A stretch of DNA of 64,000 nt from Candidatus Limnocylindria bacterium. GTDB lineage: Bacteria; Chloroflexota; Limnocylindria; P2-11E. Below the pieces are notes generated by a model, which did not search any database, was not told the DNA's origin, and saw only the letters and a program-made list of their open reading frames with translations. Each line of letters begins with the position of its first letter. Position 1 is the stretch's first letter. Positions 5,938-60,076 of the stretch are shown here, one piece after another. Location: NCBI GenBank assembly GCA_035543375.1, contig DASZZF010000002.1, positions 67,202 through 131,201 on the forward strand, written 5' to 3'. Position numbers and translations under genes: made by a program.

Positions 5938-7094
5938 CCGAGCGCACCAGCGGCATCCTGCTCGCGGCAGCGACCGCGATCGCGGTCGGGCTGACGTATA
6001 CCGACCAGGCGGCGCTCGTCCCGCTCATCCGCGCGGAGCTCGGCATCACCGACGTGCAGGCCGGGCTGTTGCCGACCGCGCTCTTCCTGACCTCGATCCC
6101 CACGATGCTCGTCACATCGACGCTCGCCGATCGCATCGGCGCGAAGCGCATGAACGGCTACGGCGTCGCGATCGCTCTCGCGGGGAATCTCCTGTTCAGC
6201 ATCGCGCCCTCGTACGAAGGCATGCTCGCGGCGAAAGCCGTCGGCGGCGTCGCGAGCGGGATGGCGTTCGTCGGCGGGGTCCGGTACATCAGTGGCCTCT
6301 ACGCCGGCGCGCGCTCGCATCTCGGTCAGGGCCTGTACGGAGCCGGGTATCCGCTGGGCACCGCGCTCGGCTTGCAGCTCTTGCCGCCGCTGGCCCTTGC
6401 GTTCGGCGGCTGGCGGGGCGCGTTCGTCGGCTCGAGCGCGCTCTTGCTCGTCGTCCTTGTCGTCTATGCGGTCGTCGCCCCAACGGTGCCCGCGCTACGG
6501 TTGGCGGGAGGCATCAGAGACGCACTGCGCGACGGGAACGCGTGGTGGTGTTTCGTCGAGCACGCGGCGGGCTTCGGACTGGCGCTCGCGACCGGCACCT
6601 GGGTGAGCGTCTTCGTCCTTCGCGAGTTCGACGCGTCGCTCGTCGTCGCCGGCGCGCTCGGGTCGCTCCTTCCCCTCATCGGTCTGGCCATGCGCCCGCT
6701 CGGTGGCTACCTCGTCGCGCGCGAGCGCGCGACGACGGTCGCGATCATGCGGGGGTCACAGCTCGTGAGCCTGACCGGGCTGGTGCTCCTCGCGTTCCCC
6801 GGAAGACCGCTCGCCGTCGCGGTGGTCGGCGGGCTGATGGTGGGGAGCGGTGCCGCCCTCCCGTACGCCGCCGTATTCAACACCGCGGCGGCCTCGCTGC
6901 GGCGCGCGCCGGGCGCCGCGCAGTCGCTCGCCGCGGCGGGCGGCACGTTCGGCGCGGTGCTCGGCGCGCCGGCGATGGGATTCGCGGTCGAGCGGTTCGG
7001 GTTCAGCGCGGCGTGGGCGGTCATCGCGATCCTGCCCGTGGCCGCGCTCGTGGGCACGTTCGTCCTGCGCGGCGAGGAGCAGCTCGCCCCTTAG
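5934..7094 (+). CDS. MFS transporter
   Basis: About 12 predicted TM helices. The first TM ([17 protein letters not shown]) starts right after CTG 5934, which overlaps the aceB TGA (CTGA). The nearest in-frame canonical start is either 200+ nt inside aceB or downstream of TM1, so the start is provisional. Confidence 0.8.
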
Positions 7095-7832
7095 CGGATG
7101 TCGTCCTGCTCGGCGATGAACACCAGGGCACGCCGAACTGTGATCCGACCGTTGCCGCGAGGGCCCTCACGCCGAGGGTTTCGGTGACCCAGTGCGAGCC
7201 GACGATGAGGTTGAGTCCCCGCTCGCGCGCGTAGCGCTTCGTGTACATCGATCCCTCGCCGGTGACAACGGTCTCCGCCGGTGCAGCCGCGCCTCCTCGA
7301 GCATGCTCGTGAGACCCACGCCGCCGGTGGCGATCGCCACGCGTTTGCACGTGGGCGCGTTCTCCCACGCCTCGATCGGTTCGCCGAGAGGGTCACATGC
7401 GCTCGCAGAGCTGCGCGAACGTCCGCTCGTGCCGGCCGACGTCGCCCGCCAAACCGCCGTGGTACGGGAGGAACCGCTCCTGCAGGGTGACTCCGAGCGC
7501 CGCCGCGAGCATCGGGATTGCCGAAACCCGGCGCGCCGTCGAGCGCGGAGTGGGCACCGTCCAGCGAGATCCCGTTGTCGCGGAGACGATCGAGCTTCTG
7601 GGGTTCGAGCTCGAGATCGATGTGTGGCCACGTCCGGTGATGGACGATGAGCAGGTCCGAGTCGGTGACCTTCGCGCGCGCGATCGCGTGGAACGACGTG
7701 TTTCACGGCCGCGGCGACGCGGGTCACCGTGTCGCCGGACCCAGGACGAGGCCGTTCGACGCTTCCTCATCGAACCTCCCGACCTCGACCGTCGCGTCGA
7801 GGAAGGCGGCGACATCGTCGAGCCTCGCTCAA
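7091..7832 (-). pseudogene. Nif3/YbgI family (GTP cyclohydrolase 1 type 2 homologue) gene disrupted by about 7 single-nt frameshifts
   Basis: Homology to YbgI-type proteins (NGL..G, LLIVHH, AHSALD, ATGG, VVTGE, GSHW.TE) is continuous only if the reading frame is switched about seven times across all three minus frames. Pieces appear in track ORFs 7393..7848, 7167..7727, 7021..7368 and 7091..7396. Confidence 0.75.
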
Positions 7833-9292
7833 CGGAGACGCTCGACAAGGAGCCGGCTCACGAGCGCGGGGTTCGCTTTCCCGCCGGTCTGCTGCATCAC
7901 CCGGCCGACGAGCGGGCCGAGCGCGCGCTGATTGCCGGCGCGGACGGCCGCCGCGGCCTCCGGCTCCTGCGCGATGATGGCGTCAACGGCAGCGGCGATG
8001 GCCCCTTCGTCGGACACCTGGGCGAGGCCCTTCTCGGCCACGATCTCGAGCGGGTCCCGCCCGGACGCGAGCATCGCGGCGAAGACCGTCTTCGCGGCCG
8101 TCGTGCTGATCGTGCCCGCGGCGATCAGCGACACGAGCGTGCCGAGCTGGGCCGCGCTGATCTCGACCTCCGCGAGTGCCTTCCCGGCGGCCCTGAGGTG
8201 GCCGAGCAGCTCCACCGTGACCCAATTGGCGACGCGCTTCGCCTCCCCGGGGGCCGCGCGGACCGCGTCCTCGAAAAAGGCGGCCAGCGCCCGGTCGGAA
8301 ACGAGGACGCGGGCGTCGTAATCCGAGAGCCCGTACTGCGTCACGAACCGCGCGCGCCGGTCGGACGGCATCTCGGGCAGCGCTGTGCGGATCCGCTCGA
8401 CCATCTCCCGGTCCGGCCGCAGCGCCACGAGGTCGGGCTCAGGGAAGTACCGGTAGTCATCGACATCCTCCTTGGTCCGCTGGACGTACGTGCGCCGCGA
8501 GTCGGGGCTCCAGCCGACGGTGATCTTGCCTTTCCGCGTTCGGAGCTCGCCGCCGTCCTGCCACTCGTTCCAGAGCCGGTCCGACTCGTACGCGACGGCG
8601 CCCTCGAGAGCGCGGAAGCTGTTGAGGTTCTTGATCTCGCTAAGCGGCGGCCACCGCGTCTCGCCGTCCTCCGTGAAGCGGATGGAGACGTTCACGTCGA
8701 AGCGCGCGCCACCCTCCTCGAGCTTGAACTCCGCGACGCCCGCGTACACGAGCCGCTCGCGCAGTAGCTCGAGGTACGCGAGCGACTCGCGAACCGAACG
8801 CAGGTCCGGGGCGCTGACGATCTCGAGGAGCGGCACGCCGGAGCGATTGAAATCGATGAGCGTCGCGCCAGCCGCGTGCAGCAGGCTGCCGGTGTCCTCC
8901 TCGAGATGCGCGCGGATGATGCCGACACGCTTCGCACGGCCGTCGTCGCCGGGTATTTCGAGCCAACCGTTCGACGAGAGCGGGAGGTCGTATTGCGAGA
9001 TCTGGTAGCCCTTCGGCAGGTCGGGATACATGTAGTTCTTGCGGTCGAACTTGGTATGCGCCGGGGTCTCGCAATGCAGCGCGATGCCGGCGGCGATTGA
9101 CAGCTCGATCGCCTTGCGGTTCGGGACCGGGAGCGCGCCAGGGAGGCCCAGGCAGACCTCGCACGTGAGGGTGTTCGGCGGGGCGCCGAACCATTTGGCC
9201 GAACAGCCGCAGAACATCTTCGAGCGCGTGTCGAGCTCGACGTGGCATTCGATGCCGATGATCGTTTCGTACGGCGGCGCGCTGACCGTCAC
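7829..9292 (-). CDS. gatB: Asp-tRNA(Asn)/Glu-tRNA(Gln) amidotransferase subunit B
   Basis: 487 aa, YETIIGIECHVELDTRSKMFCGC...CEVCLGLPGALPV. GTGA overlap with the upstream gene. Confidence 0.95.
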   Translation of the reverse strand: MTVSAPPYETIIGIECHVELDTRSKMFCGCSAKWFGAPPNTLTCEVCLGLPGALPVPNRKAIELSIAAGIALHCETPAHTKFDRKNYMYPDLPKGYQISQYDLPLSSNGWLEIPGDDGRAKRVGIIRAHLEEDTGSLLHAAGATLIDFNRSGVPLLEIVSAPDLRSVRESLAYLELLRERLVYAGVAEFKLEEGGARFDVNVSIRFTEDGETRWPPLSEIKNLNSFRALEGAVAYESDRLWNEWQDGGELRTRKGKITVGWSPDSRRTYVQRTKEDVDDYRYFPEPDLVALRPDREMVERIRTALPEMPSDRRARFVTQYGLSDYDARVLVSDRALAAFFEDAVRAAPGEAKRVANWVTVELLGHLRAAGKALAEVEISAAQLGTLVSLIAAGTISTTAAKTVFAAMLASGRDPLEIVAEKGLAQVSDEGAIAAAVDAIIAQEPEAAAAVRAGNQRALGPLVGRVMQQTGGKANPALVSRLLVERLR

Positions 9293-13591: not shown

Positions 13592-13600
13592 GTCGTCAGT

Positions 13601-14035
13601 CTACGGGCGGAACAGCGCGACCATGTGCGGCGCGAACACGAGCAGGCCGACCGCGACCGAGGCGATCGCGGCGACGAACACCATCCCGGCGGCGATATCC
13701 TTGGCCGCCCGGGCCTCGGGCCGGTGCTCCGGTGACGCGAGGGTGACCGCGAGCTCGATGCCGGTGTTCAGACCCTCCATCATGACGACGAGCGCGATCG
13801 TCAGCGCGACCAGTGCCCACTCGATGGCGCTCAGGCCGACCGCAAGGCCGATCACGATGGCCGTGGCCGCGGCGAGGAGATGCAGACGGAAGTTCCGCTG
13901 GGTCCGGACCAGATAGGCGATCCCCGCGAGCGCGTATGCGAAGGAGCGCACGCCGACAGTGTGCGCCCGCTGGCCTGCGACGTGCTCCGCGGATCCGCTG
14001 GCAGCGACGGCGGGAGGTCTCGCTGACCCATGCAT
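13601..14035 (-). CDS. dgkA: diacylglycerol/undecaprenol kinase family protein
   Basis: SFAYALAGI...MMEGLNTGIELAV...AKDIAAGMVFV motifs at the C-terminal end of track ORF 13601..14878. The start is either ATG 14035 or GTG 13951. Confidence 0.75.
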   Translation of the reverse strand: MHGSARPPAVAASGSAEHVAGQRAHTVGVRSFAYALAGIAYLVRTQRNFRLHLLAAATAIVIGLAVGLSAIEWALVALTIALVVMMEGLNTGIELAVTLASPEHRPEARAAKDIAAGMVFVAAIASVAVGLLVFAPHMVALFRP

Positions 14036-14968
14036 CCTGATGTCCTCGCGCACGTCAAGTGGTTCACCGACCCCGTACCGTACCCGACCGAATGGTCGCT
14101 GCTCCTCACCCTCCCCGTTCTGGCGGCATTCGCGGCCGCGCTCGCCGCCGCCGGCATCGCCGCGTATATCCAGCACCACGTCGCCGAGCCGGGCGCGCTC
14201 AAATGGCTCGAGCGCTACGCTAAGACCGGTCCGCTCGTACTCGGCCTGCACGTCGGCGCCGCGCTGTGCGTCGCGGCGATCGCGGGGATCCTCTTCACGC
14301 CGAACCTGCGCCCGAACGATGACGTCCTCGGGCGCGCGATCCTCGTCATCGAGGCGATGTGCGGCGTGATGCTGCTGCTCGGCCTTGCCACGCGCGCGGC
14401 CGCGGTGCTCCTGGTTTCGCTCGGGATCCTGGCGCTGCAGCCATTCACGTTCGAAAGCATTTTCGAGAACGTCCACATCCTGGGTATCGCGATGTTCTTC
14501 TTCATCGTCGGGCGCGGCCCCGTGTCGCTCGATCGCGTCCGTGGCATTCGCCCGCCGATCCGCCACGCTGAGGCGCCGGCCGCGGCGCTCGCGCTGCTGC
14601 GGCTGGCCCTCGGACTCGGCATCGCGTTCAGCGCGTTGACCGAGAAGCTCCTCGACCCCGGGCTCGCGCAGGCGCTCCTCGATCAGCGCCCGTTCCTGAA
14701 CGTCGGACGGGCATTCGGGCTGGGCGACCCGCAGTTCGCGTATCTCGTCGGAGTCACCGAGCTCACGATCGGCGTCGTGATCGTCTCGGGCCAGCTCACC
14801 CGACCGGTGATGGCGGTCGGGGCCCTCATCTTCACATCGTCGCTCCCGCTGTTCGGGTGGTCCGAGTTCCTCGGCCACCTGCCGTTCTACGGGATCATGT
14901 TCATGCTGTTCATCGCGCCGAACGCCGACTCGTGGGCGGTGAAACGGCAGCTCCGTCCATCCACGTAA
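14030..14968 (+). CDS. polytopic membrane protein (DoxX-like, tentative)
   Basis: 312 aa with ~8 hydrophobic helices. High GC3. GGGAGG lies upstream. Confidence 0.7.
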   Translation: MHPDVLAHVKWFTDPVPYPTEWSLLLTLPVLAAFAAALAAAGIAAYIQHHVAEPGALKWLERYAKTGPLVLGLHVGAALCVAAIAGILFTPNLRPNDDVLGRAILVIEAMCGVMLLLGLATRAAAVLLVSLGILALQPFTFESIFENVHILGIAMFFFIVGRGPVSLDRVRGIRPPIRHAEAPAAALALLRLALGLGIAFSALTEKLLDPGLAQALLDQRPFLNVGRAFGLGDPQFAYLVGVTELTIGVVIVSGQLTRPVMAVGALIFTSSLPLFGWSEFLGHLPFYGIMFMLFIAPNADSWAVKRQLRPST

Positions 14969-15003
14969 CGCCGGGCTACGCGGGGGCTGTGAGCGCCCCT
15001 GGG

Positions 15004-15388
15004 CTAGCGGAGCGGCAGCGACAGCTGGAACGTCGCGCCCATGCCCGGCCCGATGCTATCCGCGCTCAGGCGACCGACGTGCGCTTCGGCAAGGATGGCG
15101 AGGCCACGAAGACCACGAGCCCGGTCGCGAGGTTCCGGCCACCGGGCGCGGGGAGAAAGCCCTCCTCCTTGACCATATCGACCGACCAGGCGACCGCCGA
15201 GGCAGCGGAGATCGCAACGCCGGCGCCGCGCCCTCAGAGCAGCCTGACCGCGACGACTGGCAGGACGTACAGGACCACGAAGGAGTGTCGTCGGGGGTGA
15301 CGATACCGGCCCACATGATCGCCGCCGTCGCGACCAGTCCGAGACCGACCGCCAGGCTGTCGCGCAGCCGTGGATCCAACCGTCTCAT
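15004..15388 (-). pseudogene. remnant of a sensor histidine kinase (two TM segments plus the extreme C-terminus of the ATPase domain, spread over three frames)
   Basis: Frame ending at TAG 15004-15006 reads GLRGLAILAEAHVGRLSADSIGPGMGATFQLSLPLR, which resembles the G2 box to the end of HATPase_c. The upstream frames give TM-like LAVGLGLVATAAIMWAGIV and SFVVLYVLPVVAV. There is no HisKA/H-box. Confidence 0.35.
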
Positions 15389-21273: not shown

Positions 21274-21349
21274 CGTTCGATGGTAGGTGCGGCAAGCGGT
21301 CTCATCGTCGATCGCGTCGCGACCTTCGACCCGCGACTGCGCGCCGTAC

Positions 21350-21784
21350 CTAGCCGGCGACCTTCCGCTGGCAGAAGGCGTAAAGCGCGTCGAAGATCGG
21401 CTTCGATGCGAGCCGCTGCGCCTGGTCGTTCGGGTGGTGTAGGGACCGCACGCCATCGAGGAGTGCCTCGACGCCCGGCGACTCCGGCGTCAGGTCCTTG
21501 GCGGCAGTGTCCGCGCCGCGAACGACCAGGGCGAGATAGGCCATCGCCGGATCCTTCTCCAGGCCGTACTTGCGCACGACCGCGTCGAAGCTGCATAGCG
21601 CACCGTGGTGTCCGAGCTCGACGCCTTCCACGTCGTAGGGTGTGGCGCCAGTCCGCTGCGCTTCCGTCATGACCTCCTCCGCCGGCATGTACAGGAACTC
21701 CGCCGCCGGGTCGATGAACCGTTCGATAAGCCAGGGGCAGGCGACACGGTCGACCTTCGGGTGCTCGCGCGTGATCCATTTCAT
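21350..21784 (-). CDS. ChrB C-terminal-domain-like protein (chromate resistance family)
   Basis: MKWITREHPKVDRVACPWLIERFIDP is the typical start of this domain. Trimmed from track ORF 21350..21910. Confidence 0.7.
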   Translation of the reverse strand: MKWITREHPKVDRVACPWLIERFIDPAAEFLYMPAEEVMTEAQRTGATPYDVEGVELGHHGALCSFDAVVRKYGLEKDPAMAYLALVVRGADTAAKDLTPESPGVEALLDGVRSLHHPNDQAQRLASKPIFDALYAFCQRKVAG

Positions 21785-21943
21785 GACGGCAGTATCGCCG
21801 GTGGATGGACGGTGGAAAACCCGGCCGGACGGTGGACAACTGGGCCTCGGGCAAGCGTTAACTCGTGGATAAAGACGTAGTCGCCCTGGTGCGGCGCGGC
21901 TATGTTTCATCGCGACCCGAGGGGTCTGCCAAGGGGACCGGAT

Positions 21944-23491: not shown

Positions 23492-25449
<1,958 letters not shown>

Positions 25450-25635: not shown

Positions 25636-26757
25636 GTGAAGATCGACCGCCTGGAGACCTGGGTCCTCGAGGCCGAGGGCCCGGCCATCGAATTCGGCGC
25701 CGGCTCCTATTCGACCTTCAAGGCTATGGTCGTGGCGATCACGACCGACGACGGGCTCACCGGATGGGGCGAGTGCATCGCCCGGCGCGCGCCGAAGGTG
25801 CTGGACAGCGTCGTCCGCGAGCTCCTCTGGCCGGTCGCGCACGGTCGCGATCCGCATGACGTGGAAGGGCTCTGGGACGAGATGTTCGGCCTGCTGCGAC
25901 CGTGGGGTCACTACCGCGGCTTCGTGCAGGAGGGCATCAGCGGGATCGACCAGGCGCTCTGGGACATCCTCGCCCAGACCCAGGGGATCCCTCTCTACAA
26001 GGCGCTCGGTGGCGCCGGCCGCTCGAGCGTGCCGGTCTACGGCTCGAAGGTCTACACGGCCGATGTCGCGGCGATGGCGAAGCAGGCCCGGGAGAAGGTC
26101 GACGGCGGGCACCGCGCGATCAAGATCCAGCTCGGCCGGTCCGCGGCCCGGGACGGCTACCGCGGGGATATCGCCGTCACCAGGGCCATCCGCGAGGCGG
26201 TCGGTCCGGAGATCGAGATCGGGGCCGACGTCAACAGCGCATACGACGCCGCGACCGCGATCAAGGTCTGCCACGCGATCGCGAAGTACGACCTCGCGTT
26301 CATCGAGGAGCCGGTCTATCCCGACGACATCGACGGGTACGAGCTCATCCGCCGGTCGCAACCCATCCCGGTCGCGGCGGGCGAGTCGGAGTTCGGCATC
26401 TTCGGCTTCCGCGAGCTGCTGAAGCGCCGCGCAATCGACATCGTGCAGCCCGACGTCGCTCGCATCGGCGGGTTCACCGCAGCGAAGCGGCTCGGCGCGC
26501 TCGTGCACGCCCACAACGTGACGTATGCCCCGCATACCGGGTTCTCGTGCGGTATCGCGCAGCTGGCGTCGATGCACCTCGCTGCGGCGGCACCGAATCT
26601 GTGGCGCCTCGAATGGATGTGGATAACGAACCCGATCGCGGAGATCTTCGAGGAGCCGCTCCCGCAGCCGAAGGACGGCGTGCTCGCTCTCCCGACCGGA
26701 CCAGGTCTTGGCCTCACTCTCGACCGGACGAAGCTGGAGAAGCACCGGCTGTCGTGA
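25636..26757 (+). CDS. enolase-superfamily enzyme (mandelate racemase/muconate lactonizing family)
   Basis: KIDRLETW..., metal-ligand regions DVNSAY, FIEEP and AAGESE. Start at GTG 25636 (or 25627). Confidence 0.85.
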   Translation: MKIDRLETWVLEAEGPAIEFGAGSYSTFKAMVVAITTDDGLTGWGECIARRAPKVLDSVVRELLWPVAHGRDPHDVEGLWDEMFGLLRPWGHYRGFVQEGISGIDQALWDILAQTQGIPLYKALGGAGRSSVPVYGSKVYTADVAAMAKQAREKVDGGHRAIKIQLGRSAARDGYRGDIAVTRAIREAVGPEIEIGADVNSAYDAATAIKVCHAIAKYDLAFIEEPVYPDDIDGYELIRRSQPIPVAAGESEFGIFGFRELLKRRAIDIVQPDVARIGGFTAAKRLGALVHAHNVTYAPHTGFSCGIAQLASMHLAAAAPNLWRLEWMWITNPIAEIFEEPLPQPKDGVLALPTGPGLGLTLDRTKLEKHRLS

Positions 26758-27206
26758 TCCGGCCCTGGCGCACGCTCGCGCGGCGCGTCCTGCTGCGGCG
26801 GCCGCCGTGGTTCGAGATCGGCGAGGAGACGATCGAGCTTCCTAATGGGAACGTCGTCGACGACTTCGGCTGGATCACGATGCTGGACTTCGCGGTCATC
26901 GTGCCATTGACGGCCGACGAGCCCACCGTTCTGATCCGCTCTTATAAGCATGGAGTGCGCGCCGTCTCGCTCTCGCTGCCTGGCGGCGCCTTGCGCCCTG
27001 GCGAGGATCCGCTTGCGGGAGCGAAGCGCGAGCTCCGGGAAGAGACCGGATTCGAGGCGGATGACTGGCTACCACTTGGCCGCCACGTGATGGACCCGAA
27101 TTACGGCTGCGGAGCGATGCACGGATTCCTTGCCCGCGGCGCGCGCAGGGTGACCGAGCCGGATAGCGGCGACCTCGAAGCGCAGCAGATCCTGGTCCTC
27201 CCGTGA
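26754..27206 (+). CDS. NUDIX hydrolase (ADP-ribose pyrophosphatase-like), ending at a possibly premature TGA
   Basis: Nudix box GGALRPGEDPLAGAKRELREETGF. GTGA overlap with the upstream gene. The frame continues plausibly for 33 codons after the TGA. Confidence 0.85.
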   Translation: MIRPWRTLARRVLLRRPPWFEIGEETIELPNGNVVDDFGWITMLDFAVIVPLTADEPTVLIRSYKHGVRAVSLSLPGGALRPGEDPLAGAKRELREETGFEADDWLPLGRHVMDPNYGCGAMHGFLARGARRVTEPDSGDLEAQQILVLP

Positions 27207-27304
27207 GCGGACGCCGTCGATCGGCTCGATCGGGGCGAAGTGCGGCAGCTGTCGACGGCCGCGGCGCTGGCCCTGGCAGCCCTCGCGCTCGAACGCGCGC
27301 GTTC

Positions 27305-38371: not shown

Positions 38372-39585
38372 AGTGCGAAGAGGTCACGCGCGGCCGGCTC
38401 GTGCTCGGGCGAGCGGCGCAGGCGGACGGTCGGCTCGTGAATGAGCGCGTGGGCGAGGCCCTCCGAGAGGGACTCGACCACCCGGCGATCGCGTCCCGAC
38501 AGATGCGACAGGCGCGCGAGAGCGCGCTCGAGCTGGCGGACCCGGATCACCTCGGCGCGCTCGCGGAGCGCGCGGATCGTGACGCTCGCGTCGCGCTCGT
38601 GGAGCGCCGTCATCAGCACCGCGGTCGCGGCGGCGCAGCGGGCCTCGATGTCCGCGACGCTCGCCGCGTCGAGCTCCGGCGCCGCGGCGTCGGAGAGATC
38701 GTCGACATCGAGATACCGGAGGCCCTCGAGGCTCCGGGCGTCGGCGTCGACGCTGCGCGGGACGGCAAGATCGACGAGGGTGAGCGGTCCGCGGGCGAGG
38801 CGCGGGCCGAGACGCTCCCGCGTGATGACCGCTCCGCGGGTGTCCGCCGCGGCGATGACCGCCGAGGCGCGCAGCAGTGGCTCATCGATGTCGGACAGCG
38901 CCACCGCCGTGGCGCCGTGCTCGTGAGCGAGCGACGCGGCCCGAGCAACGTCGCGATTCGCGACGACGATGGTGCCGACACGCGATGCCAGCGCCCGGAG
39001 CGTGAGCTTGCCGACCTCGCCCGCGCCGATGACGAGCACGGTCGCGGCACGCTCGTCGGAACAGTCGGCAAGCGCCGCATCGACCGCGAGCGATCCGACG
39101 GTGCGCCGGACGGTGCCCAGCGCCGTCACGCGTCGGAGCTCGCGGCCGACGCGAAGCACGCGCTGCGTCACCGTCGCGAGCATCGGGTGCAGCGGACCGG
39201 CGGCCCGCAGATCGTCGAAGGTCCGGCGGAGCTGTCCCAGGATCTGCCCCTCGCCGCGGATCACGGAGTCCAGGCCGCAGGCGACGCGGACGAGATGCAG
39301 GACCGCGTCATGGCCGATGCGGACGGTGGCCTCGACTGGGATCGCGACGTCGAGGCGGGCGGCGATCAGGGTCGCGGGTTCGCCATCCGCCGGCAGCACG
39401 AGCGCGACCTCACAGCGGTGGCAGGTGGCGAGCATCAGCACGTCCGCCGAGGCCAGGGCGCTGACCTGGGCGGTGAGGCGCTCGCGGACATCGACGCCGG
39501 CGTCACGCTGATGCAGGGACAGCAGCGCGAAGCGGGCTCCGTCGCTCACTCGCTGCACCGTATCGGCGCTGTCGTCCGTCGCCAA
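38368..39585 (-). CDS. hemA: glutamyl-tRNA reductase
   Basis: LATCHRCEV active-site region and NAD fold VIGAGEVG. TTG start. Confidence 0.9.
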   Translation of the reverse strand: MATDDSADTVQRVSDGARFALLSLHQRDAGVDVRERLTAQVSALASADVLMLATCHRCEVALVLPADGEPATLIAARLDVAIPVEATVRIGHDAVLHLVRVACGLDSVIRGEGQILGQLRRTFDDLRAAGPLHPMLATVTQRVLRVGRELRRVTALGTVRRTVGSLAVDAALADCSDERAATVLVIGAGEVGKLTLRALASRVGTIVVANRDVARAASLAHEHGATAVALSDIDEPLLRASAVIAAADTRGAVITRERLGPRLARGPLTLVDLAVPRSVDADARSLEGLRYLDVDDLSDAAAPELDAASVADIEARCAAATAVLMTALHERDASVTIRALRERAEVIRVRQLERALARLSHLSGRDRRVVESLSEGLAHALIHEPTVRLRRSPEHEPAARDLFAL

Positions 39586-39630
39586 GAGCTTCGCCGAGAT
39601 TTACCGAGCTTTCACGCCAGCGGCGGACGA

Positions 39631-39666
39631 CAAAAATCGGGGGCGGGCATCGAAGCCCGCCCCCGA
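39631..39666 (-). terminator. rho-independent terminator after the DUF4349 gene and upstream of hemA
   Basis: Perfect 12-bp stem TCGGGGGCGGGC / GCCCGCCCCCGA with a 6-nt loop, followed on the minus strand by TTTTTG. Confidence 0.75.
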
Positions 39667-39679
39667 CGAGGAAAGGGGA

Positions 39680-40579
39680 CTACGAGGTCGCACTCGCCGG
39701 CCAGATCCGGCGCGAGACGATGAGGGCACCGGCTAGGAGCAGCAGCGGGATCCAGCCGAAGACGAGCAGCCAGATCGCGAGGTCAGCGAGGCCCCGCAGG
39801 AGCGTGGCCAGCGTCGCGAGCGCGAGCGCCGCGGTGCGCGACGGGTCCCATCCGGCCTTCGGGTCGGGGACGATGCTCGCAGCGGCGGTGCTGACCGAGA
39901 CGGTGATCGTCGAGAAGCGGGTGCGGGCGCTGATCGAGTTCACCTGACCCTGCAGCTGTTCGATCTGGGTACGGACGAGCGAGATCGATTGATCGATCTT
40001 CAGGATGTCGTCGATCTTGTCGGCACGGGCGAGCAGGGCGAGGTAGCGCTGCTCCTCGGACTGCTTCGCCGAGAGCCGGGCCTTGAGGTCGACGAACTGG
40101 TCGGTCACGTCCTTACCGTCGACGCTGGACGAGACGACTTCGGCGTCGAGGCCGCGGAGTTGGCGCAGCGCGTCGGTGAAGCGGTCGGACGGGACCCGAA
40201 GCACGAGATTCGCGATCCGATCGTTCTTGGTGCCGCTCTCGGTGAGTCCCATGACGTCGCCGCCGAGGCCCGCGGCGATCGCTTGGGCCTTGTCGGCGAT
40301 GGCCCACGGGTCGCCGGCCCGCAGCGACATCGACGCAGTGAGGATCAGGTTGCGATCGGCATCGAATGCCTGGGGGATGGGCAAACCGTTCGCCGCGCTG
40401 CCTTCGCCGGTCGCCGGCTGTGGCGGGACAGGCAAGGCCTTTCCGGTGACCGCATCGACCCGGGCCGGAGCGGCGCCGGAGACCGAAAAGCCGCCGTTGC
40501 CCGGTGCCGCGGTGGCACCGCTTTGGGCACAGGCCGCAAGAAGGAGGACCGCGGGGGCAAGCCAAGAGAGCCGCTGCAT
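39680..40579 (-). CDS. DUF4349-family lipoprotein
   Basis: Lipobox LLLAACA. Central coiled segment (DVTDQFVDLKARLSAKQSEEQRYLALL...IEQLQGQV). Two C-terminal TMs. Confidence 0.8.
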   Translation of the reverse strand: MQRLSWLAPAVLLLAACAQSGATAAPGNGGFSVSGAAPARVDAVTGKALPVPPQPATGEGSAANGLPIPQAFDADRNLILTASMSLRAGDPWAIADKAQAIAAGLGGDVMGLTESGTKNDRIANLVLRVPSDRFTDALRQLRGLDAEVVSSSVDGKDVTDQFVDLKARLSAKQSEEQRYLALLARADKIDDILKIDQSISLVRTQIEQLQGQVNSISARTRFSTITVSVSTAAASIVPDPKAGWDPSRTAALALATLATLLRGLADLAIWLLVFGWIPLLLLAGALIVSRRIWPASATS

Positions 40580-43609: not shown

Positions 43610-44443
43610 TCAGCGCGCGGCGCTCTCGACCTGATGCGCGAGCTCCACCACGGATCGGGCGCAGCCTGCGGCGAGGTCACCGCCCACGGCGACGCCCGAC
43701 GTCACGGATTCGAGCCCCGCGAGGGCGTTGTAGATGTTCCGAACGAGGCGCTCCGCCTCCGTCGGCGGATGGCCGATGGCGGCGAGGGTCTTGTCCAGTT
43801 GGATCGTGTGCTGCCGCCAGTGTTCCTCGAATCGATGCATCCGGAAGCGGATCGGATAAGGCTCGCTCTCCCAGAAGAACGACGGCGTGTCGAGTTCGGC
43901 GTCGCTGACGGTATCGAGCGCAAGCAGAATCGCGGTGTGGCTCCGGAAGAGCGCGTTCAGCACATCGCCGCGCGAGCCGCTCGGATCCTCGACCGGCACC
44001 TCGCGCGACTCCCACTTCTCCTTCGTCGAGCGCTCCGACAGCCGTCCGGCGCGCACCGCATCGAGCGCCAGGACGATCGCGGTCAAGAACGCGCTGTCCG
44101 CGCCGAGCCCGTGCGCGAGCACCGCGCGCAGCGTCCACTGACCGGCACCGGGATCGCGATCCAGGTCAGCGTCGGTCGTGCCCGCGAGCGCGCCACTCAG
44201 GTCGCGGTACGCCTCGTGGACCTGCGCGAGGATCCGCTGGCCTTCGCTGAACGGCTCCCCCGCCGCGAGCCGCGCGGCGGCGCATGTTGCCGTGGTCTCG
44301 CGCAGCAAGTGGTGAGCGGTAAGGAGCGAGAACCGGAGCCCGTCGCCGTCGTAGTCATGCCAGACGTACGGCCGGTCCAGGTCGGCATCGCTCAGCCGCA
44401 CGCTCGCCGCGACGAGCCGCTCGACGGCCTGCGTCGGCGTCAT
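43610..44443 (-). CDS. DinB-superfamily protein
   Basis: DinB-like His-containing helices (WTLRAVLAHG, HWRQHTIQL). 277 aa. Confidence 0.7.
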   Translation of the reverse strand: MTPTQAVERLVAASVRLSDADLDRPYVWHDYDGDGLRFSLLTAHHLLRETTATCAAARLAAGEPFSEGQRILAQVHEAYRDLSGALAGTTDADLDRDPGAGQWTLRAVLAHGLGADSAFLTAIVLALDAVRAGRLSERSTKEKWESREVPVEDPSGSRGDVLNALFRSHTAILLALDTVSDAELDTPSFFWESEPYPIRFRMHRFEEHWRQHTIQLDKTLAAIGHPPTEAERLVRNIYNALAGLESVTSGVAVGGDLAAGCARSVVELAHQVESAAR

Positions 44444-44697
44444 CCGAGCGACACCTCCGGCACCCGGCGTAGCGTTTCCTCGGCGAGCGCGTCGATCACG
44501 GCGTGCAGGTGCCCGGTGCGCTCGTGCACCCGCACCGGCCGGTCCGCGCTGGTTCCGTCGCGGGCAATCACGCGAAGGTACTCGACCTCGGCCCGGGATC
44601 CGAGCGGATCGAGCACGTCATCGACGAACTCGAGCAGCTACTCGGCGAGGTCGCGGCCGAGCGCGGCGCTGTGCGCCTTGCGATGGTCACGCCTCAT
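44440..44697 (-). pseudogene. small ORF (85 codons) interrupted by an in-frame TAG at codon 20 and ATGA-coupled to the DinB gene
   Basis: MRRDHRKAHSAALGRDLAE-TAG-LLEFVDDVLDPLGSRAEVEYLRVIARDGTSADRPVRVHERTGHLHAVIDALAEETLRRVPEVSLG. Hand-counted GC3 is about 87 percent, against about 78 percent for the opposite-strand track ORF. Confidence 0.4.
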
Positions 44698-44754
44698 CCG
44701 CGCGCGTGCCTCGAGCGCGAGCCGCGGGCGATCCCCCCGAAGACGTCAACCGTT

Positions 44755-45465
44755 TCATTCGTCGCTCGCGGCATCGCTCCCCCTCGCGTCACGGGACATT
44801 GGCGCGACGATGACCGTGACCTCCCCCTTGGGGCGCTCGGAAGCATACCGAGCCGCGAGCTCTGTCGCCGTCCCGCGCACGAATGACTCGTGGATCTTGG
44901 TGAGCTCACGCGCGACGACGACGCGCGCGTCCGGCGCGACGGCGGCGATATCTGCGACGAGATCACCGACGCGGTAGGGGCTCTCGTACGCGACGACAGT
45001 GCGGCCCTCGCCAAGGAGCGCGCCGATGAGGCGCTGCCGCGCGCCGCTCTTCTTCGGCAGAAAGCCGAGGAAGGTGAACGCGCGCGTCGGCAGACCGGAT
45101 GCGACGAGCGCCGCGATCGCGGCATTCGGGCCGGGGATGGACGACACGGTCTGATCGGCAGCGATGGCCGCGGCGACGAGCGCCTCGCCCGGGTCGGACA
45201 GCGCGGGCGTGCCCGCATCAGATACGAGCGCCACGTCCCAGCCCCGCTCGAGCTGCCCGACGAGGACGCCGACCTGCCGCTTGTGGTTGAACTCCGTGTA
45301 CGAGGTGAGGTGCTTCGCGCGGATCTGGTAACGGCGGAGGAGGATCTGGGTGTGGCGGGTGTCCTCGCACGCGACCATGTGGACCTCCTGCAGCACCCGG
45401 AGCGCCCGCGGAGAGACGTCCTCCAGATTGCCGATCGGGGTGGCAACGAGATACAGGGTGCCCAC
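44755..45465 (-). CDS. rsmI: 16S rRNA (cytidine1402-2'-O)-methyltransferase
   Basis: GTLYLVATPIGNLEDVS...CEDTRHT...SDAGTPALSDPG motifs. Start at GTG 45465 or ATG 45507. Confidence 0.9.
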   Translation of the reverse strand: MGTLYLVATPIGNLEDVSPRALRVLQEVHMVACEDTRHTQILLRRYQIRAKHLTSYTEFNHKRQVGVLVGQLERGWDVALVSDAGTPALSDPGEALVAAAIAADQTVSSIPGPNAAIAALVASGLPTRAFTFLGFLPKKSGARQRLIGALLGEGRTVVAYESPYRVGDLVADIAAVAPDARVVVARELTKIHESFVRGTATELAARYASERPKGEVTVIVAPMSRDARGSDAASDE

Positions 45466-47788: not shown

Positions 47789-48639
47789 GGCGCGACCTTG
47801 ATCCCCATGCGCTCCGCCAGGGCCCGGAAGACCAGATCCGGACGCTCGTCGCGCAGCAGCGGGTTGCGGGCCCGTTCGCGCGCGACGAGGGCCGGGTCGA
47901 TCTCCGCAATGACGAGCTCTTCCTCGAACTCCTTCGCCCGGGCGACGACCGTGCCATCCGGCGCGACGACCTCGGACCCGCCCCAGAAGCCGACGCCGTC
48001 CTCGTGACCGACCCGATTCGCGAACGCCACGTACACCGTGAGGTATTGGGCATAGAAACGATCCATCGACCGGCAGGATGCCGCGGTGCCGAGGTCTCCG
48101 CCCTCAGCGACCCCGCGCCCGGGGCTCGAGGCGGGCGCCAGGATCACGCTGGCCCCCGCGATCGCGTACAGGTATGGAACGGAGAGATGCCAGAGATCCT
48201 CGCAGATCGCGAGGCCCGCGGTGCCAACGGCGCTCTCGAACGTCTCGAACGCATCACCGGGCCCGAAGTAGCGGCCGTCGTCGAAGATCCCATACGTCGG
48301 CAGGTACACCTTGCGGTGCACGTGACGCAACGCGCCGCCCGACCAGTAGCCCTGTGCGATGTGCAGCTTCGCGTCCTTCGATCGCTCGACGAAGCCCGCG
48401 ACGACGTCGATGTCGCGCGATGCACGGGCGATCGGCGCCAGGACCGGATCGTCGGCAGAGCACGCGACGTCCGCGGCGAGGTCCTTCAGGTAGTAACCGG
48501 TGAGGGACAGCTCCGGGAACACGACCAGGCGTGCCTCCGCCGCCCGCGCCCGGTCGACCCACTCCCGATGCATCTCGACATTCCGTTTGACCGCGCCGAG
48601 CGCGGGCGAGCATTGGGCGATCGCGACCCGCACGCTCAT
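47785..48639 (-). CDS. carbon-nitrogen hydrolase (nitrilase superfamily), a likely glutaminase partner of NadE
   Basis: VVFPELSLTGY...HRKVYLP...LAICEDLW catalytic E-K-C triad context. Confidence 0.9.
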   Translation of the reverse strand: MSVRVAIAQCSPALGAVKRNVEMHREWVDRARAAEARLVVFPELSLTGYYLKDLAADVACSADDPVLAPIARASRDIDVVAGFVERSKDAKLHIAQGYWSGGALRHVHRKVYLPTYGIFDDGRYFGPGDAFETFESAVGTAGLAICEDLWHLSVPYLYAIAGASVILAPASSPGRGVAEGGDLGTAASCRSMDRFYAQYLTVYVAFANRVGHEDGVGFWGGSEVVAPDGTVVARAKEFEEELVIAEIDPALVARERARNPLLRDERPDLVFRALAERMGIKVAP

Positions 48640-49070
48640 GAGCCGCGGAAGGTCCCGACGCGGTTGGCGTACTCGTTCGCGAGGGCAAGCGCGCGACGCT
48701 CATCGGCGGCCTCGGCCCAGATGTTGAACAACCAGTACCCGTCCGCGACGTACCCGTAGAGCGGCTCGCCGTCCGCGAGCAGCTGCGGGAATAGATCCTT
48801 GCTGAAATCGAAGGCCTCACCAACCGGATAACGCTCCAGCAGCCGCGGCTCGATGACGTAGATGCCGGTGTTGATCATGTCCGAGAACATTTCGCCCCAC
48901 GCGAGATATTGCAGCGTGACGACCGCGTCGGCCATGTCGTGCGACTTCAGCAGATCGAAAATGTGGCCGAGGCAGGGCCGGTTGACGATCGCCACCATCG
49001 GCTTGGGCCGGTTGATCGTGAGCGGCCGGAGGCGGCTACCCTCGCCGCCGGCCATGACGACAGCCTGCAT
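48636..49070 (-). pseudogene. nucleotidyltransferase (mannose-1-P guanylyltransferase-like) remnant with an in-frame internal deletion and truncated C-terminus
   Basis: N-terminal MAGGEGSRLRPLTINRPKPMV...VVTLQYL joins directly to WGEMFSDMINTGIYVIEP...GEPLYGYVADGYW. From memory, these blocks are about 110 residues apart in intact family members. Confidence 0.5.
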
Positions 49071-52724: not shown

Positions 52725-53126
52725 CTAGGAGGACTTCGCTTCCTCGCCCGGCCACTCGGTGAGCCCCCAGGCGCTGCCCTTCAGGGCCTTCAGGCTGAGG
52801 AGCGCGCATTTGATCCGCGCCGGGCTGAGCGTGATCCCGAGGCTGTCGAGCACGTGCTCCTTGTCGAACGCTCTGAGCTCGTCGAGGGTCTTGCCGCGCA
52901 CCTCGTCGGTGAGAATTGACGCGGATGCCTGCGAGATGGCGCAGCCCTTGCCGCTGAAGGCAACGTCTTCGACCACGTCGCCATCGCCAATCTTGAGGTA
53001 CATCGTGATCTCGTCGCCGCACAGCGGATTCGTATCGTGGTACCGGTGCGTGGCGTCGGCGAGCTCGCCGAAGTTGTGCGGATTCTTGTAGTGGTCGAGG
53101 ATGAACTCACGGTAGAAGTCGTCCAT
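52725..53126 (-). CDS. sufU: SufU/IscU-like sulfur transfer scaffold
   Basis: LDHYKNPHNFG...NPLCGDEI...GKGCAISQASAS...ARIKCALL. Confidence 0.9.
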   Translation of the reverse strand: MDDFYREFILDHYKNPHNFGELADATHRYHDTNPLCGDEITMYLKIGDGDVVEDVAFSGKGCAISQASASILTDEVRGKTLDELRAFDKEHVLDSLGITLSPARIKCALLSLKALKGSAWGLTEWPGEEAKSS

Positions 53127-53128
53127 CG

Positions 53129-54385
53129 CTAGACCTTGAACACACGCTTGGCCGTACCGATGGCTGCGACCAGCGCGTCGCACTCGGCAACGGTGTTGTA
53201 CAGGTAGAAGCTCGCGCGGGTGGTCGCCGGCGTACCGAGGCGCTCCATGAGCGGCTGGTTGCAGTGGTGGCCGGCGCGGACGCAGACGCCCTCGCTGTCG
53301 AAGATCTGCGCGACGTCGTGCGGATGGATGCCCTCGATCGCGAACGAGATGACCCCCACGCGATCGTCGAGCGTCATCGGGCCGAACACGGTGACGCCCG
53401 GGATCGCCATGATCTTCGGGAGCGCGTAGCCGACGAGCGCCCGCTCGTGCTCGTGGATCCGGCCCATCCCGACGGCCTCGAGGTAGTCGACGGCGGCGCC
53501 GAGCCCGATCGCGTCGACGTACGCGGAGGTCCCGGCTTCGAACTTCCACGGCAGCTCGTTCCACGACGACCGCGCCACCGTCACGGTCGCGATCATGTCG
53601 CCGCCGTAGAGGAACGGCCGCATCTTCTCGAGGAGCGCCGCGCGCCCCCAGACCACTCCCGAGCCGGGAGGCGCCAGCATCTTGTGGCCGCTGAAGATCA
53701 GGAAATCGCAATCGAGGTCGCGAACGTCGACCTTCGAGTGGGGCACGGACTGGGCGCCATCGAGCAAGACCACCGCGCCAGCGGCGTGGGCCTCGGTCAC
53801 GAGCTCCTTGGCGGGAGTGACGGTGCCGAGGCCGTTGCTCGCATGCGTAATCGCCACGAGCTTCGGATGCAGGGCGAGGGCGGCCGTGTACTCGTCCCGC
53901 TTCAGCCGGCCCTCCTCGTCGATATCGACAACGATGAGCCGCGCGCCGGCCTGCTGCGCGAGCTGCTGCCAGGGGACGAAGTTCGAGTGATGTTCGAGCA
54001 CGGTCGTCACGATCACATCACCGGTGCCGACGTGCTCGCGGGCCCAGGAGTTCAGGACGAGGTTCGCGCCCTCGGTCGCGTTGCGCACGAAGATGACCTC
54101 ACGCGCGTGCGGGGCGTTGATGAACCGGGCGACCTTCTCGCGCGCACCCTCGAAGAGCTCACTCGTCCGGATGCTGAGCTCGTAGACACCACGATGGATG
54201 TTCGCGTTGCACTCCTCGTAGACCGCGCTCATCGCGTCGATGACCTGCCGCGGCTTCTGGCTGGTCGCCGCGTTGTCGAGATACACGAGCGGCTTGCCGT
54301 TCATCGGCCGCGAGAGGATCGGGAAGTCGGCGCGGATACGCTCGACGTCGAGCGCGGTCTCGTGGCGCGATGCGGTCAGGGGCAC
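53129..54385 (-). CDS. sufS: cysteine desulfurase SufS
   Basis: FSGHKMLAPPGSG (PLP lysine) and RAGHHCNQP motifs. Confidence 0.95.
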   Translation of the reverse strand: MPLTASRHETALDVERIRADFPILSRPMNGKPLVYLDNAATSQKPRQVIDAMSAVYEECNANIHRGVYELSIRTSELFEGAREKVARFINAPHAREVIFVRNATEGANLVLNSWAREHVGTGDVIVTTVLEHHSNFVPWQQLAQQAGARLIVVDIDEEGRLKRDEYTAALALHPKLVAITHASNGLGTVTPAKELVTEAHAAGAVVLLDGAQSVPHSKVDVRDLDCDFLIFSGHKMLAPPGSGVVWGRAALLEKMRPFLYGGDMIATVTVARSSWNELPWKFEAGTSAYVDAIGLGAAVDYLEAVGMGRIHEHERALVGYALPKIMAIPGVTVFGPMTLDDRVGVISFAIEGIHPHDVAQIFDSEGVCVRAGHHCNQPLMERLGTPATTRASFYLYNTVAECDALVAAIGTAKRVFKV

Positions 54386-55176: not shown

Positions 55177-55197
55177 GGGTACTCCCCTCTTCGTGCG

Positions 55198-55665: not shown

Positions 55666-55675
55666 TACGGTCGGA

Positions 55676-55704
55676 ATTCTAGCGAGCCCCGCGCACCCTG
55701 ACAA
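55676..55704 (-). promoter_or_regulatory. sigma-70-type promoter for the Rrf2-suf operon (TTGTCA-17-TAGAAT)
   Basis: On the minus strand: -35 TTGTCA (55704-55699), a 17-nt spacer and -10 TAGAAT (55681-55676). The GTG start is 11 nt after the -10, which implies a leaderless or near-leaderless mRNA. Confidence 0.5.
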
Positions 55705-55711
55705 TCGCCCG

Positions 55712-56248
55712 GTGGCCCTTGGTATCAGGCGTGCGGTGGTCGGGTCGACGAATCCGGCCAAGGTCGCCGCGGTCCGCACGGCGCTCGTCCGGCTGGCCCC
55801 GGCGGCGGAGGTGCGAGCGATCGCTGTGTCATCCGGTATCCCGTCACAACCGTTCGGGGACGCCGTGACGCGGAGCGCGGCCCTCGAGCGCGCGCGGCAG
55901 GCGCTCGGGGCGAGCGACGCCGAGATTGCGTTCGGTCTCGAAGGCGGGGTGGAGCTGGACGCGGGGCGGGTGTGGCTCCTTTCTTGGGTGGCAGCGCTCG
56001 ACCGCGCGGGCCAGACCGGCTATGCGAGCGGCTTGCGGATGCTGCTTCCCCCGTCGCTAGCCGACGGACTACGCGCCGGCGCGGAACTCGGCAGCCTCAT
56101 CGACCGGCTGTTCGGAGTCCGCGACAGCAAGACCCAGAGCGGCGCGATCGGCCTGCTCACCGACGGTGCGGTGTCACGGACCGACGCGTTCGCGGACCTG
56201 GTCGCGATGAGCCTCGCGCCCTGGCTCCATCCCGACCGTTACCGCTAG
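55712..56248 (+). CDS. inosine/xanthosine triphosphatase (YjjX/DUF84 family)
   Basis: VVGSTNPAKVAAV...FGLEGG... pattern, 178 aa. Confidence 0.8.
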   Translation: MALGIRRAVVGSTNPAKVAAVRTALVRLAPAAEVRAIAVSSGIPSQPFGDAVTRSAALERARQALGASDAEIAFGLEGGVELDAGRVWLLSWVAALDRAGQTGYASGLRMLLPPSLADGLRAGAELGSLIDRLFGVRDSKTQSGAIGLLTDGAVSRTDAFADLVAMSLAPWLHPDRYR

Positions 56249-58060: not shown

Positions 58061-58109
58061 CACCGGAACCAGCCTACCGGGCCTACCCGGTGTAGCGAGC
58101 GGACCGGGG

Positions 58110-59660
58110 CTACTTCCCGATTCCGACCTCGGTGAACAGATCGCCTTGGGCGTTCTGGACCTTCTTCGTCGCCGCGGCCGATGGCGCGCTCCAGACGAGC
58201 GGGATCCGCGGGACCTCACGCTGTGCGATCTTGGACACCTGCTTGTAGAGCTCCGCGCGCTTCGACGGATCCGGTTCGCTTCGCGCCTTCCGCAGCAGTC
58301 CCGCGCTCTCCGCGTTCACCCACGCGCCGCCGATCGTCGGGAGGTCTTGGCCGTTCAGGACCGGAGGGATGAACGAGCGCCCGAGCACTTCGTCCGCGTC
58401 GCCCCGCCGATCGACGAGCGTGTCGATCCACAGCGGGTACTTGTTGTCGCGGACCGAGAGCGTGAACGTTACGAAGTCGATGGTCTTGAGGTTCGCGACG
58501 ATACCGACGGCCGCGAGGTCCGCCGCGATCGATTCGGCGATCCGGCGGTCATCCGGGCGCGAGGGCGGCGCTCCGAGGACATACCAGACGTCGAGGTCGA
58601 AGGTCGCCTTGCCGGCGTCCGCGAGCAGTTTCTTCGCCGCGTCCGGGTCGTTCTTCGCGAATTCGGTGACTGAGTCGTCGTAGCCGAGCGTGCGGGGCGG
58701 CGGGAACTGGGAGGCCAGCTTCGCCTCGCCGTTGAAAAGCCGCTCGACGAGCGCGCGCGGGTTCAAGGCCTGCGCGATCGCTCGGCGGACGCGGAGGTCG
58801 TCGAGCGGCGGCACCGACAGGTTCAGCCCGACGAACAGCGTCGTCGATGCTGTCCGCGAGAGCAGCTGGAGGCTCGGATCCGCGCGGACCGCCGGCACGT
58901 CGGCGACGCCGATCTCGGGGACGAGGTCGACGCTGCCGCTGCGCAGCGCCGCGACCCGCGACGGCGCGTCGGAGTACGCGGCAAAGGTCAAGCGGTCGAG
59001 ATACGGGAGTGCCTGGCCGTTGCGGTCTTTTCTCCAGTACCTGGGATTCCGCTCGAGCAGCAGCGGACGGGCCGTCTCGGTGCCGGGTGCGATGCGGAAC
59101 GGACCGGTCCCGACGTTCGTCGCGCCGGTCCGCACGATCGCGTAGGCCGGCGTCGAGAGCGCCGAGAGGAACGGACCGAACGGCACGCGCGTGGTGACGC
59201 CCAGGGTGGTGGCGTCCGGCGCGCTTGCCCCTTCCACGATCGGGTCGTTCGGCGCGCGCATCAGGCTCTTCATTGCCGCGGTGGCATCAAAGGCTGTGCC
59301 GTCGTGAAAGATCACACCGTCGCGCAGGGTAAAGGTCCAGGTGCGGCCATCGGGCGAGACGGACCACTTCGTCGCGAGGACCCCCACAGCACCGTCCAGC
59401 GCGTTCGCCACGAGGCCCTCGTAGATCTGGCGCGTCACCGGGCGGGCAGCGTCGTCGTCGTGTCCGGGGTCGAGGAGCCCGACGTCCGCCGCCAGACCGA
59501 TACGCAGCGTCCCGCCGGGCTGGATCGACACGAGCGGCGCGGTCGGGCTCGGGCTCGCGGTGGCCTGGACCGAGGGGACGGCCACCGGCGGCGGGATCGA
59601 CTGGCACGCGGCGAGGGCGGCGATGAGGACGAGGGCGGCGCGCGGAGGCCTTCGGGTCAA
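58110..59660 (-). CDS. ABC transporter substrate-binding lipoprotein, family 5 (peptide/nickel type)
   Basis: Lipobox LIAALAAC. SBP_bac_5-like sequence. TTG start overlapping the stop of the permease remnant (TTGA). Confidence 0.85.
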   Translation of the reverse strand: MTRRPPRAALVLIAALAACQSIPPPVAVPSVQATASPSPTAPLVSIQPGGTLRIGLAADVGLLDPGHDDDAARPVTRQIYEGLVANALDGAVGVLATKWSVSPDGRTWTFTLRDGVIFHDGTAFDATAAMKSLMRAPNDPIVEGASAPDATTLGVTTRVPFGPFLSALSTPAYAIVRTGATNVGTGPFRIAPGTETARPLLLERNPRYWRKDRNGQALPYLDRLTFAAYSDAPSRVAALRSGSVDLVPEIGVADVPAVRADPSLQLLSRTASTTLFVGLNLSVPPLDDLRVRRAIAQALNPRALVERLFNGEAKLASQFPPPRTLGYDDSVTEFAKNDPDAAKKLLADAGKATFDLDVWYVLGAPPSRPDDRRIAESIAADLAAVGIVANLKTIDFVTFTLSVRDNKYPLWIDTLVDRRGDADEVLGRSFIPPVLNGQDLPTIGGAWVNAESAGLLRKARSEPDPSKRAELYKQVSKIAQREVPRIPLVWSAPSAAATKKVQNAQGDLFTEVGIGK

Positions 59661-60076
59661 CTCACCCTCAGTCTAGGGTCGAGCGCGTCGCGCAGACTTG
59701 CCGCCGACGAGGTACGGGCAGAGACCACAAGGAAGATGAAGAACACCGGCGACAAGGCGAGCCACCATGCGCGGCCCAGGCACTGCGTCGCGTTCGTGAG
59801 GATGTTCCCCCGCCCGGCGTGGGCGGATACATCCCTAGGCCGAGGTCGCTAAGCGCGGACTCGGTGAAGCTGAGCCGGCCGATGTCGATCGAGGCGAGCA
59901 CAAAGATGTGCGGGACGACGTTCGGCAGCACGTGCTTCACGATGATCCGACTTCGTGGTCGCCCCGATCGTCCGGGCCGAAATCACCAACTCGCGCTCCC
60001 GGACGGCGAACGTCTGCCCGCGGGCGAGGTTGCAGGCCGCGGTCCAGCGGAGGATCCCGAGGCTGGACACGGGCAA
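59657..60076 (-). pseudogene. 3' remnant of a second DppC/OppC-like permease gene (5' two-thirds deleted, at least 2 frameshifts)
   Basis: ARGQTFAVRERELVISARTIGATTKS / IIVKHVLPNVVPHIFVLASIDIG...LGLGMYPPTPG / GNILTNATQCLGRAWWLALSP...LRDALDPRLRVS lie in three frames. They parallel residues ~150-308 of the intact permease at 60099..61025. Confidence 0.7.

Follow-up and report, generated by a model that had tools for sequence, protein, structure and literature searches.

Six damaged genes in a conserved 64-kb stretch of a Candidatus Limnocylindria genome: a probable local cluster of pseudogenes in a genome of ordinary decay

Does a dense group of broken genes among housekeeping genes mark a genome that is shedding its contents, or a local cluster in a genome that decays at the usual pace? 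The question is raised by a window of 64 kb (positions 67202-131201 of contig C2, the whole stretch analyzed here) in G000, the population genome of a free-living soil Candidatus Limnocylindria (Chloroflexota). An earlier sequence-only reading of this window had listed six damaged loci, namely nif3, a kinase, a NUDIX gene, a small open reading frame with a nonsense codon, a nucleotidyltransferase gene and a dppC' remnant, had called their density unusual, and had taken the variety of the lesions as a sign of genuine, ongoing gene loss. G000 is a metagenome-assembled genome (MAG) of 1.549 Mb in 23 contigs with 69% G+C, a completeness of 62.9% and a contamination of 0.07%. Orthologues for comparison were taken from the congeners G001-G012 and G021, all of them species other than that of G000, which share approximately 76-83% nucleotide identity with it in syntenic blocks and approximately 77% amino acid identity in orthologues. 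Since the gene order of the window is well kept in these congeners, orthologous loci could be compared directly.

All six loci proved to be damaged, at the positions that had been given, when each was judged against intact orthologues in 2 to 12 congeners. As had been read from the sequence, the lesions are of different kinds; there are mostly several per gene, and the neighboring genes are intact. The relics of nif3, the kinase, NUDIX, GCS2, ppa and the nucleotidyltransferase each lie in syntenic position, flanked by conserved orthologues. The 37 neighboring orthologues in the window are intact, with an amino acid identity of 78.0% compared to 77.1% in the rest of the genome. We consider it likely, judging from these comparisons, that the six lesions are genuine pseudogenes or deletion scars, that the cluster is local and that decay across the genome is ordinary.

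The six damaged loci and their intact counterparts

The nif3 gene (DUF34/NIF3; 7091-7835, minus strand) is the last gene of a gatCAB-nif3 operon and matches Pfam PF01784 in pieces spread over three frames. Alignment of the DNA to the intact orthologues of G003, G004 and G021, which encode 249 amino acids (aa), revealed approximately seven indels of 1-2 nucleotides (nt), two of them 2-nt deletions. Only two of the seven fall in runs, and those are short (2-3 nt), while five lie outside homopolymer runs. The indels end exactly at the gene borders. At codon position 2, the divergence was 0.12-0.16 and hence two to three times the 0.05-0.06 found between intact orthologues, while position 3 was similar, a sign of relaxed constraint rather than of miscalled bases alone.

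Several stages of decay of the same gene were found among the relatives. It is intact in G003, G004 and G021 and at the loci L067, L068, L071 and L093, carries four indels of its own in G008 (C40 17929-18672, L021), and is gone both from G005, where it is missing between gatB and the next gene (C109 near 24669-24704, L024), and from L069. Among the more distant Limnocylindria loci (63-70% GatB identity), nif3 was found behind gatB at only one. With the gene broken or missing in several relatives, nif3 is being lost repeatedly within this group.

The sensor histidine kinase relic (approximately 14985-15281, minus strand) was delimited by tblastn with the kinases of G003, G004, G005 and G008, by its translations and by the Pfam HATPase_c match of the G003 orthologue. 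In these four congeners, the orthologue is a HATPase_c histidine kinase of 343-353 aa, and tblastn covered only 29-35% of it in the window, in two frames and with 2 stops. What is kept is the N-terminal membrane part with an in-frame stop and, after a frame change near 15090, the last approximately 35 codons in another frame. Approximately 600 nt, comprising the HisKA region and most of HATPase_c, are deleted.

A lighter lesion affects the NUDIX hydrolase gene (26754-27302, plus strand; identified by Pfam NUDIX and by protein alignment with G003 and G005). Here, an in-frame TGA at 27204-27206, of the TGG-to-TGA type, stands where G005 has tryptophan and G003 phenylalanine, and shortens the product to 150 aa from an expected length of approximately 178-183 aa. 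The 32 codons between this stop and the ancestral one near 27300 are still in frame and conserved, with no evident relaxation of constraint. This conservation suggests that the stop is a recent one-base event; of all the lesions, it is the one most exposed to the suspicion of an error.

The nonsense codon in a small open reading frame belongs to a much larger lesion. The stop is present at 44638-44640, as had been noted; however, it falls in frame inside the last approximately 70 codons of a 373-aa gene for a GCS2/YbdK-type carboxylate-amine ligase and is really part of the scar of a 4.3-kb, five-gene deletion. Only a 3' remnant of the ligase gene is left (44440-44655, minus strand), with 79-81% identity to residues approximately 300-373 in G003 and G011 and Pfam GCS2 assigned on the orthologue. 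According to blastn synteny breaks against contig C18 of G003 and contig C92 of G011 and to alignments across the junction (44600-44760, minus strand), approximately 4.3 kb present in both congeners are absent from the window, and at the junction, codon ~15 of ppa runs into codon ~300 of GCS2. The deletion took the soluble inorganic pyrophosphatase gene ppa, which is left as a 5' stub of approximately 14 codons (VDVFGGIARGSRSR), an esterase gene, a 315-327-aa gene of unassigned family, a circularly permuted ATP-grasp gene and 300 GCS2 codons. Because of this loss, the former statement that no essential gene is damaged has to be qualified. Among 20 relatives, ppa was found in 18 and a membrane H+-pyrophosphatase (H+-PPase) in all 20, and the loss of ppa would probably be backed up by the latter enzyme.

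The fifth locus is a 144-aa, in-frame remnant (48636-49070, minus strand) of a gene with the domain order NTP_transferase-LbH-PGM/PMM, as established by Pfam and congener alignment. The long form, a bifunctional sugar-nucleotide enzyme of 831 aa, was found in 12 of 12 congeners and in all 80 metagenome contigs kept. Positions 1-169, 476-644 and 2400-2496 of the gene are retained, separated by deletions of 306 nt (junction 48902|48901) and 1755 nt (48733|48732), both in frame, and the sequences joined share microhomologies of 2-4 nt. Missing from the remnant are residues ~57-158 of the NTP_transferase fold along with the complete LbH and PGM/PMM domains. Its native start and native stop are kept, the latter overlapping the start of the next gene (ATGA) in the same way as in G003 and G011. 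Position-2 divergence is not raised (0.06-0.07 compared to 0.02-0.06), so relaxed constraint is not evident here, which, as for the codons past the NUDIX stop, implies either that the event is recent or that some constraint persists.

Lastly, the dppC' relic (59663-60088, minus strand) comprises the C-terminal approximately 120 codons of an ABC peptide permease and was recognized from its translations, by tblastn and from a match to Pfam BPD_transp_1 positions 74-183/184. This C-terminal half of a BPD_transp_1 permease is readable only through two frameshifts. In a tblastn search against G000 itself and G003, its nearest relative was the adjacent intact dppC with 58% amino acid identity, which makes it a paralogue of its neighbor and not an orthologue of a G003 gene. 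The neighborhood holds a second SBP-dppB-dppC set (60099-63717), which is 37-40% identical to the orthologous set, has no ATPase genes of its own and is flanked by a third SBP_bac_5 gene (58110-59660) and, on the other side, by the conserved dppF-dppD genes. A dpp operon of the window stripped of its ATPase genes was considered and rejected, as the orthologous dppD and dppF lie just past the window end with 91-94% identity (C2:131235-133408 of G000). The SBP-dppB-dppC set in the window is therefore an extra unit, inserted or duplicated, and dppC' is its debris. The remnant is damaged, as had been claimed, but it is a by-product of this extra transporter set, and the ancestral transporter was not lost.

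Relics in the window and across the genome

For a genome-wide view, the same relic test was applied in both directions between G000 and the congener G003, of which 1.87 Mb (78%) were used. Of the G003 genes sought in G000, 771 were intact, 20 were relics and 88 were cleanly absent; in the opposite direction, 753 were intact, 14 were relics (one of them a mis-call of the gene caller) and 65 were cleanly absent. Relics among conserved syntenic genes amounted to 20 of 791 (2.5%) in G000 and 13 of 766 (1.7%) in G003 (p = 0.29), and the coding fractions obtained with the same caller were 0.909 and 0.932, respectively. Prokaryote genomes typically contain at least 1-5% pseudogenes (PMC522871), and since both relic rates fall within this range, the level of decay can be regarded as ordinary. 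An intrinsic scan for gaps whose coding-like signal runs across stops or is spread over several frames yielded an upper estimate of 60 gaps per 1513 genes (approximately 4%). Unusual decay, in so far as it had been claimed at the scale of the genome, was not borne out by these data. The sequence-only reading had itself named an ordinary genome-wide fraction with the window as a chance cluster as the outcome that would speak against it, and this is largely what was found; gene presence and absence are also near-symmetric (88 against 65 absences).

Relics are spread through the genome, and the peculiarity of the window is that conserved rather than accessory genes were struck. Three other 64-kb bins of G000 equal or exceed the window in relic-like gaps, and relics confirmed by Pfam elsewhere in G000 include a truncated SDR, an alpha/beta-hydrolase, a luciferase-like protein, Replic_Relax and IS481. 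At the contig end C10:115528-117401, two IS481-type transposase fragments (HTH and partial rve) were found, one of them with an in-frame stop and a frame change, which suggests decayed insertion sequences (IS) at a contig break. A first ortholog screen, based on 0.86 Mb of G003, had placed nearly all lesions in the window; this was overturned by the use of 1.87 Mb and by the intrinsic scan. False relics arising from the codon-usage gene caller were discounted, namely 2428-4170 (minus strand), miscalled as a 723-aa open reading frame on the plus strand, and 13601-14113 (minus strand), which was missed. The latter is a poorly conserved gene with 53% identity to a 204-aa gene of G003, where approximately 7 kb of extra genes adjoin; its orthologues vary, with 384 aa in G004 and partial forms in G008 and G021.

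The window also differs from its congeners in gene content. At 21285-21801, it has approximately 480 extra nt with a stand-alone 144-aa ChrB_C protein (21350-21784, minus strand), whereas only approximately 30 nt are present in G003, G021 and G008. A 7.8-kb block of approximately eight genes (31948-39732) gave no alignment to the approximately 6.4 kb between the same flanks in G003 and is a replaced, variable segment. Together with the inserted dpp set, the ChrB_C gene and the replaced block fit a locally flexible stretch. RNA genes and tRNA integration sites were considered as a cause of the clustering and discarded, as the 64 kb contained no Rfam match and no tRNA. Contig C2 as a foreign member of the bin was likewise rejected, its orthologue identity to G003 being equal to that of the other contigs. 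Separately, a gap of approximately 500 nt upstream of a 629-aa ABC exporter gene (55666-56173) has the same size in G003 (C18 19051-19573); it gave no Rfam match, and its plus strand shows coding-like composition without stops from 55733 to 56173.

Probable genuine decay and the alternatives

Taken together, the lesions can be explained as lineage-specific products of ordinary mutation, that is, small indels, a nonsense transition and deletions by illegitimate recombination at microhomologies of 2-4 nt. The genes struck (nif3, ppa, the orphan kinase, NUDIX, the bifunctional enzyme and the partial dppC duplicate) would be dispensable, redundant or accessory in this lineage. After the first lesion, they would have drifted, which would account for the several lesions per gene and for the extra non-synonymous change in nif3. 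The form of the lesions may reflect position in the operon. Both nif3 and NUDIX end their operons, so that they could have decayed without polar effects, while in the nucleotidyltransferase gene, whose stop and the following start codon overlap, only in-frame remnants would keep translational coupling to the next gene, and both deletions may be in frame for this reason. The genome would then decay at an ordinary level of approximately 2.5-4% of its genes, with the window as a local and modest concentration of relics where genes have also been inserted and replaced.

Several observations weigh against this explanation. The window contains 6 relic genes (5 events) to 37 intact orthologues, compared to 14 to 711 elsewhere (odds ratio 8.2, Fisher p = 5e-4, or p = 0.002 by events), although these p values are nominal, as there are approximately 24 windows per genome and this one was selected by the reader. 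The earlier claim of an unusual density stands as regards the rate of relics among the conserved genes of this genome, but not as regards relic-like gaps, and chance plus a flexible region may account for the cluster. Moreover, the syntenic absences (88 compared to 65, p = 0.075) would allow G000 to be somewhat more decayed than G003, and the intrinsic scan gave 38.7 relic-like gaps per Mb in G000 and 16.5 in G003 (2.3-fold), a comparison confounded by the longer contigs of G000, which retain more flexible and mobile regions than fragmented short-read bins. The assembled 63% of G000 yielded neither ppa nor H+-PPase; the expected hppA neighborhood lies just past the end of contig C17, and the backup for ppa is assumed. 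The nucleotidyltransferase deletion allele was absent from the 80 public metagenome contigs kept, with a junction-spanning peptide pattern among the probes. Finally, each lesion taken singly, and chiefly the one-base stop in NUDIX, could stem from an error in the consensus or from an allele carried by a minority.

The last two points lead to the suspicion that the lesions are artefacts of assembly, consensus or binning, such as collapsed gaps, a strain-mixture consensus or indel errors, and not mutations of the dominant population; a bin of 23 contigs with 62.9% completeness gives some room for this. Yet errors would scatter, while 771 of 791 conserved syntenic genes (approximately 97%) are intact, which rules out a generally error-prone assembly, and isolated homopolymer indels scattered over conserved genes were not what was found. 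The nif3 indels are confined to the gene and come with an excess of non-synonymous change, and other assemblies independently show the same gene in a broken state or lack it. Individual relics combine several lesion types (deletion, frameshift and 2 stops in the kinase, a further stop in the GCS2 remnant), and deletion junctions share 2-4 nt of homology, which would fall far short of what a false k-mer join in de Bruijn-graph assemblers requires. Comparable multi-hit pseudogenes were seen in the short-read congener G003. Relics noted in congeners are a frameshifted esterase (C18 4494-5202) and a gene of 987 aa interrupted by 5 stops over two frames (C24 13261-16223), both in G003, and in G011 a frameshifted orthologue of window 53129-54385 (C92 8064-9324). 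With multi-hit decay, parallel nif3 loss, junction microhomology and excess non-synonymous change all speaking against it, an artefact is improbable; the lesion mix and the parallel loss are better explained by genuine decay than by a single kind of sequencing error, in line with what had been proposed from the sequence. A milder doubt, which is unlikely as well, is that some of the loci still function as shortened genes. The NUDIX product of 150 aa has an intact reading frame up to its stop and matches over the catalytic N-terminal half including the Nudix box, and the nucleotidyltransferase remnant, with both deletions in frame, start and coupled stop kept, conserved ATGA coupling and unraised position-2 divergence, might serve as a translated spacer or mini-protein. 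However, the chance of two in-frame deletions is 1 in 9, the domain losses make an enzymatic function of the remnant implausible, and conservation past the NUDIX stop indicates just a recent stop. For nif3, the kinase, GCS2 and dppC', this explanation does not apply.

If the lesions are real, they could still be representative of early genome erosion, with decay raised above the level of the congeners by a niche shift or by a smaller effective population size. The gap rates above would agree with this, as would the share of gap bases (6.9% in G000 and 4.4% in G003), the number of gaps longer than 500 nt (47 and 22 per Mb), the coding densities of 90.9% and 93.2% and the surplus of absences; ppa was lost even though 18 of 20 relatives keep it, and conserved genes were struck, not just accessory ones. 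Against this, the relic rates of conserved genes do not differ significantly and both stay within 1-5%, only 14 of 725 conserved genes outside the window are relics, intact orthologues are normally conserved, and with a coding density of 91%, G000 is a long way from eroding genomes. Scaled up from a completeness of 62.9% (1.55 Mb / 0.63, approximately 2.5 Mb), the genome would match the congeners in size. With the intrinsic comparison biased by the long contigs of G000, we regard early erosion of the whole genome as a rather poor candidate. Even less is to be expected of a cluster that is not due to chance, in which selection was recently relaxed over a contiguous, conserved stretch of approximately 55 kb or in which erosion is at its very start. 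If this were true, ppa, the bifunctional sugar-nucleotide enzyme, NIF3, the sensor kinase and the GCS2/ATP-grasp cluster would have been shed within a short time, and operon-internal deletions would have been filtered for reading frame by translational coupling.

Comparison with known systems and meaning for the lineage

For ordinary decay with a local cluster, the closest likeness is found in the common pseudogenes of bacteria (Liu et al. 2004, Genome Biol 5:R64, PMC522871). The relics of G000 have homology to intact, syntenic genes of relatives and carry disabling lesions with reduced coverage of Pfam domains; they are disabled copies with the usual mix of frameshift, nonsense and truncation, affect 2.5-4% of genes and include ABC-transporter and transposase relics. 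They differ in that six occur within 64 kb of housekeeping genes, that five of these six concern genes conserved in the genus and not failed horizontal transfers, and that G000 is a metagenome bin, in which a lesion is known from the consensus rather than from an allele frequency.

The likeness to reductive evolution, as in Mycobacterium leprae, M. lepraemurium and Sodalis-type symbionts, consists in multi-hit decay, deletion stubs and the loss of redundant metabolic genes. In these mass-pseudogenised genomes, however, tens of percent of the genes are broken, and the broken fraction of G000 is lower by an order of magnitude. Neither a pseudogene fraction far above 1-5% nor a low coding density was found in G000, apart from a few IS481 fragments no sign of IS expansion was observed, and gain and loss relative to the congener are near-symmetric. 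For the recurrent loss of NIF3/DUF34 (YbgI family, PF01784), the likeness is to a conserved, non-essential gene with a poorly defined function; in the present comparisons, three stages, intact, frameshifted and deleted, occur within one genus.

Genome reduction should not be read into this window, which may serve mostly as a caution and a calibration for the reading of raw sequence, from which the six broken genes had been recognized correctly. It also offers clean examples of the death of conserved genes in an uncultured soil lineage, namely the stages of nif3, the five-gene deletion and the trimming of a protein from 831 to 144 aa. These cases are useful for the annotation of Limnocylindria MAGs, and they support the idea that translational coupling limits how operon-internal genes can be deleted.

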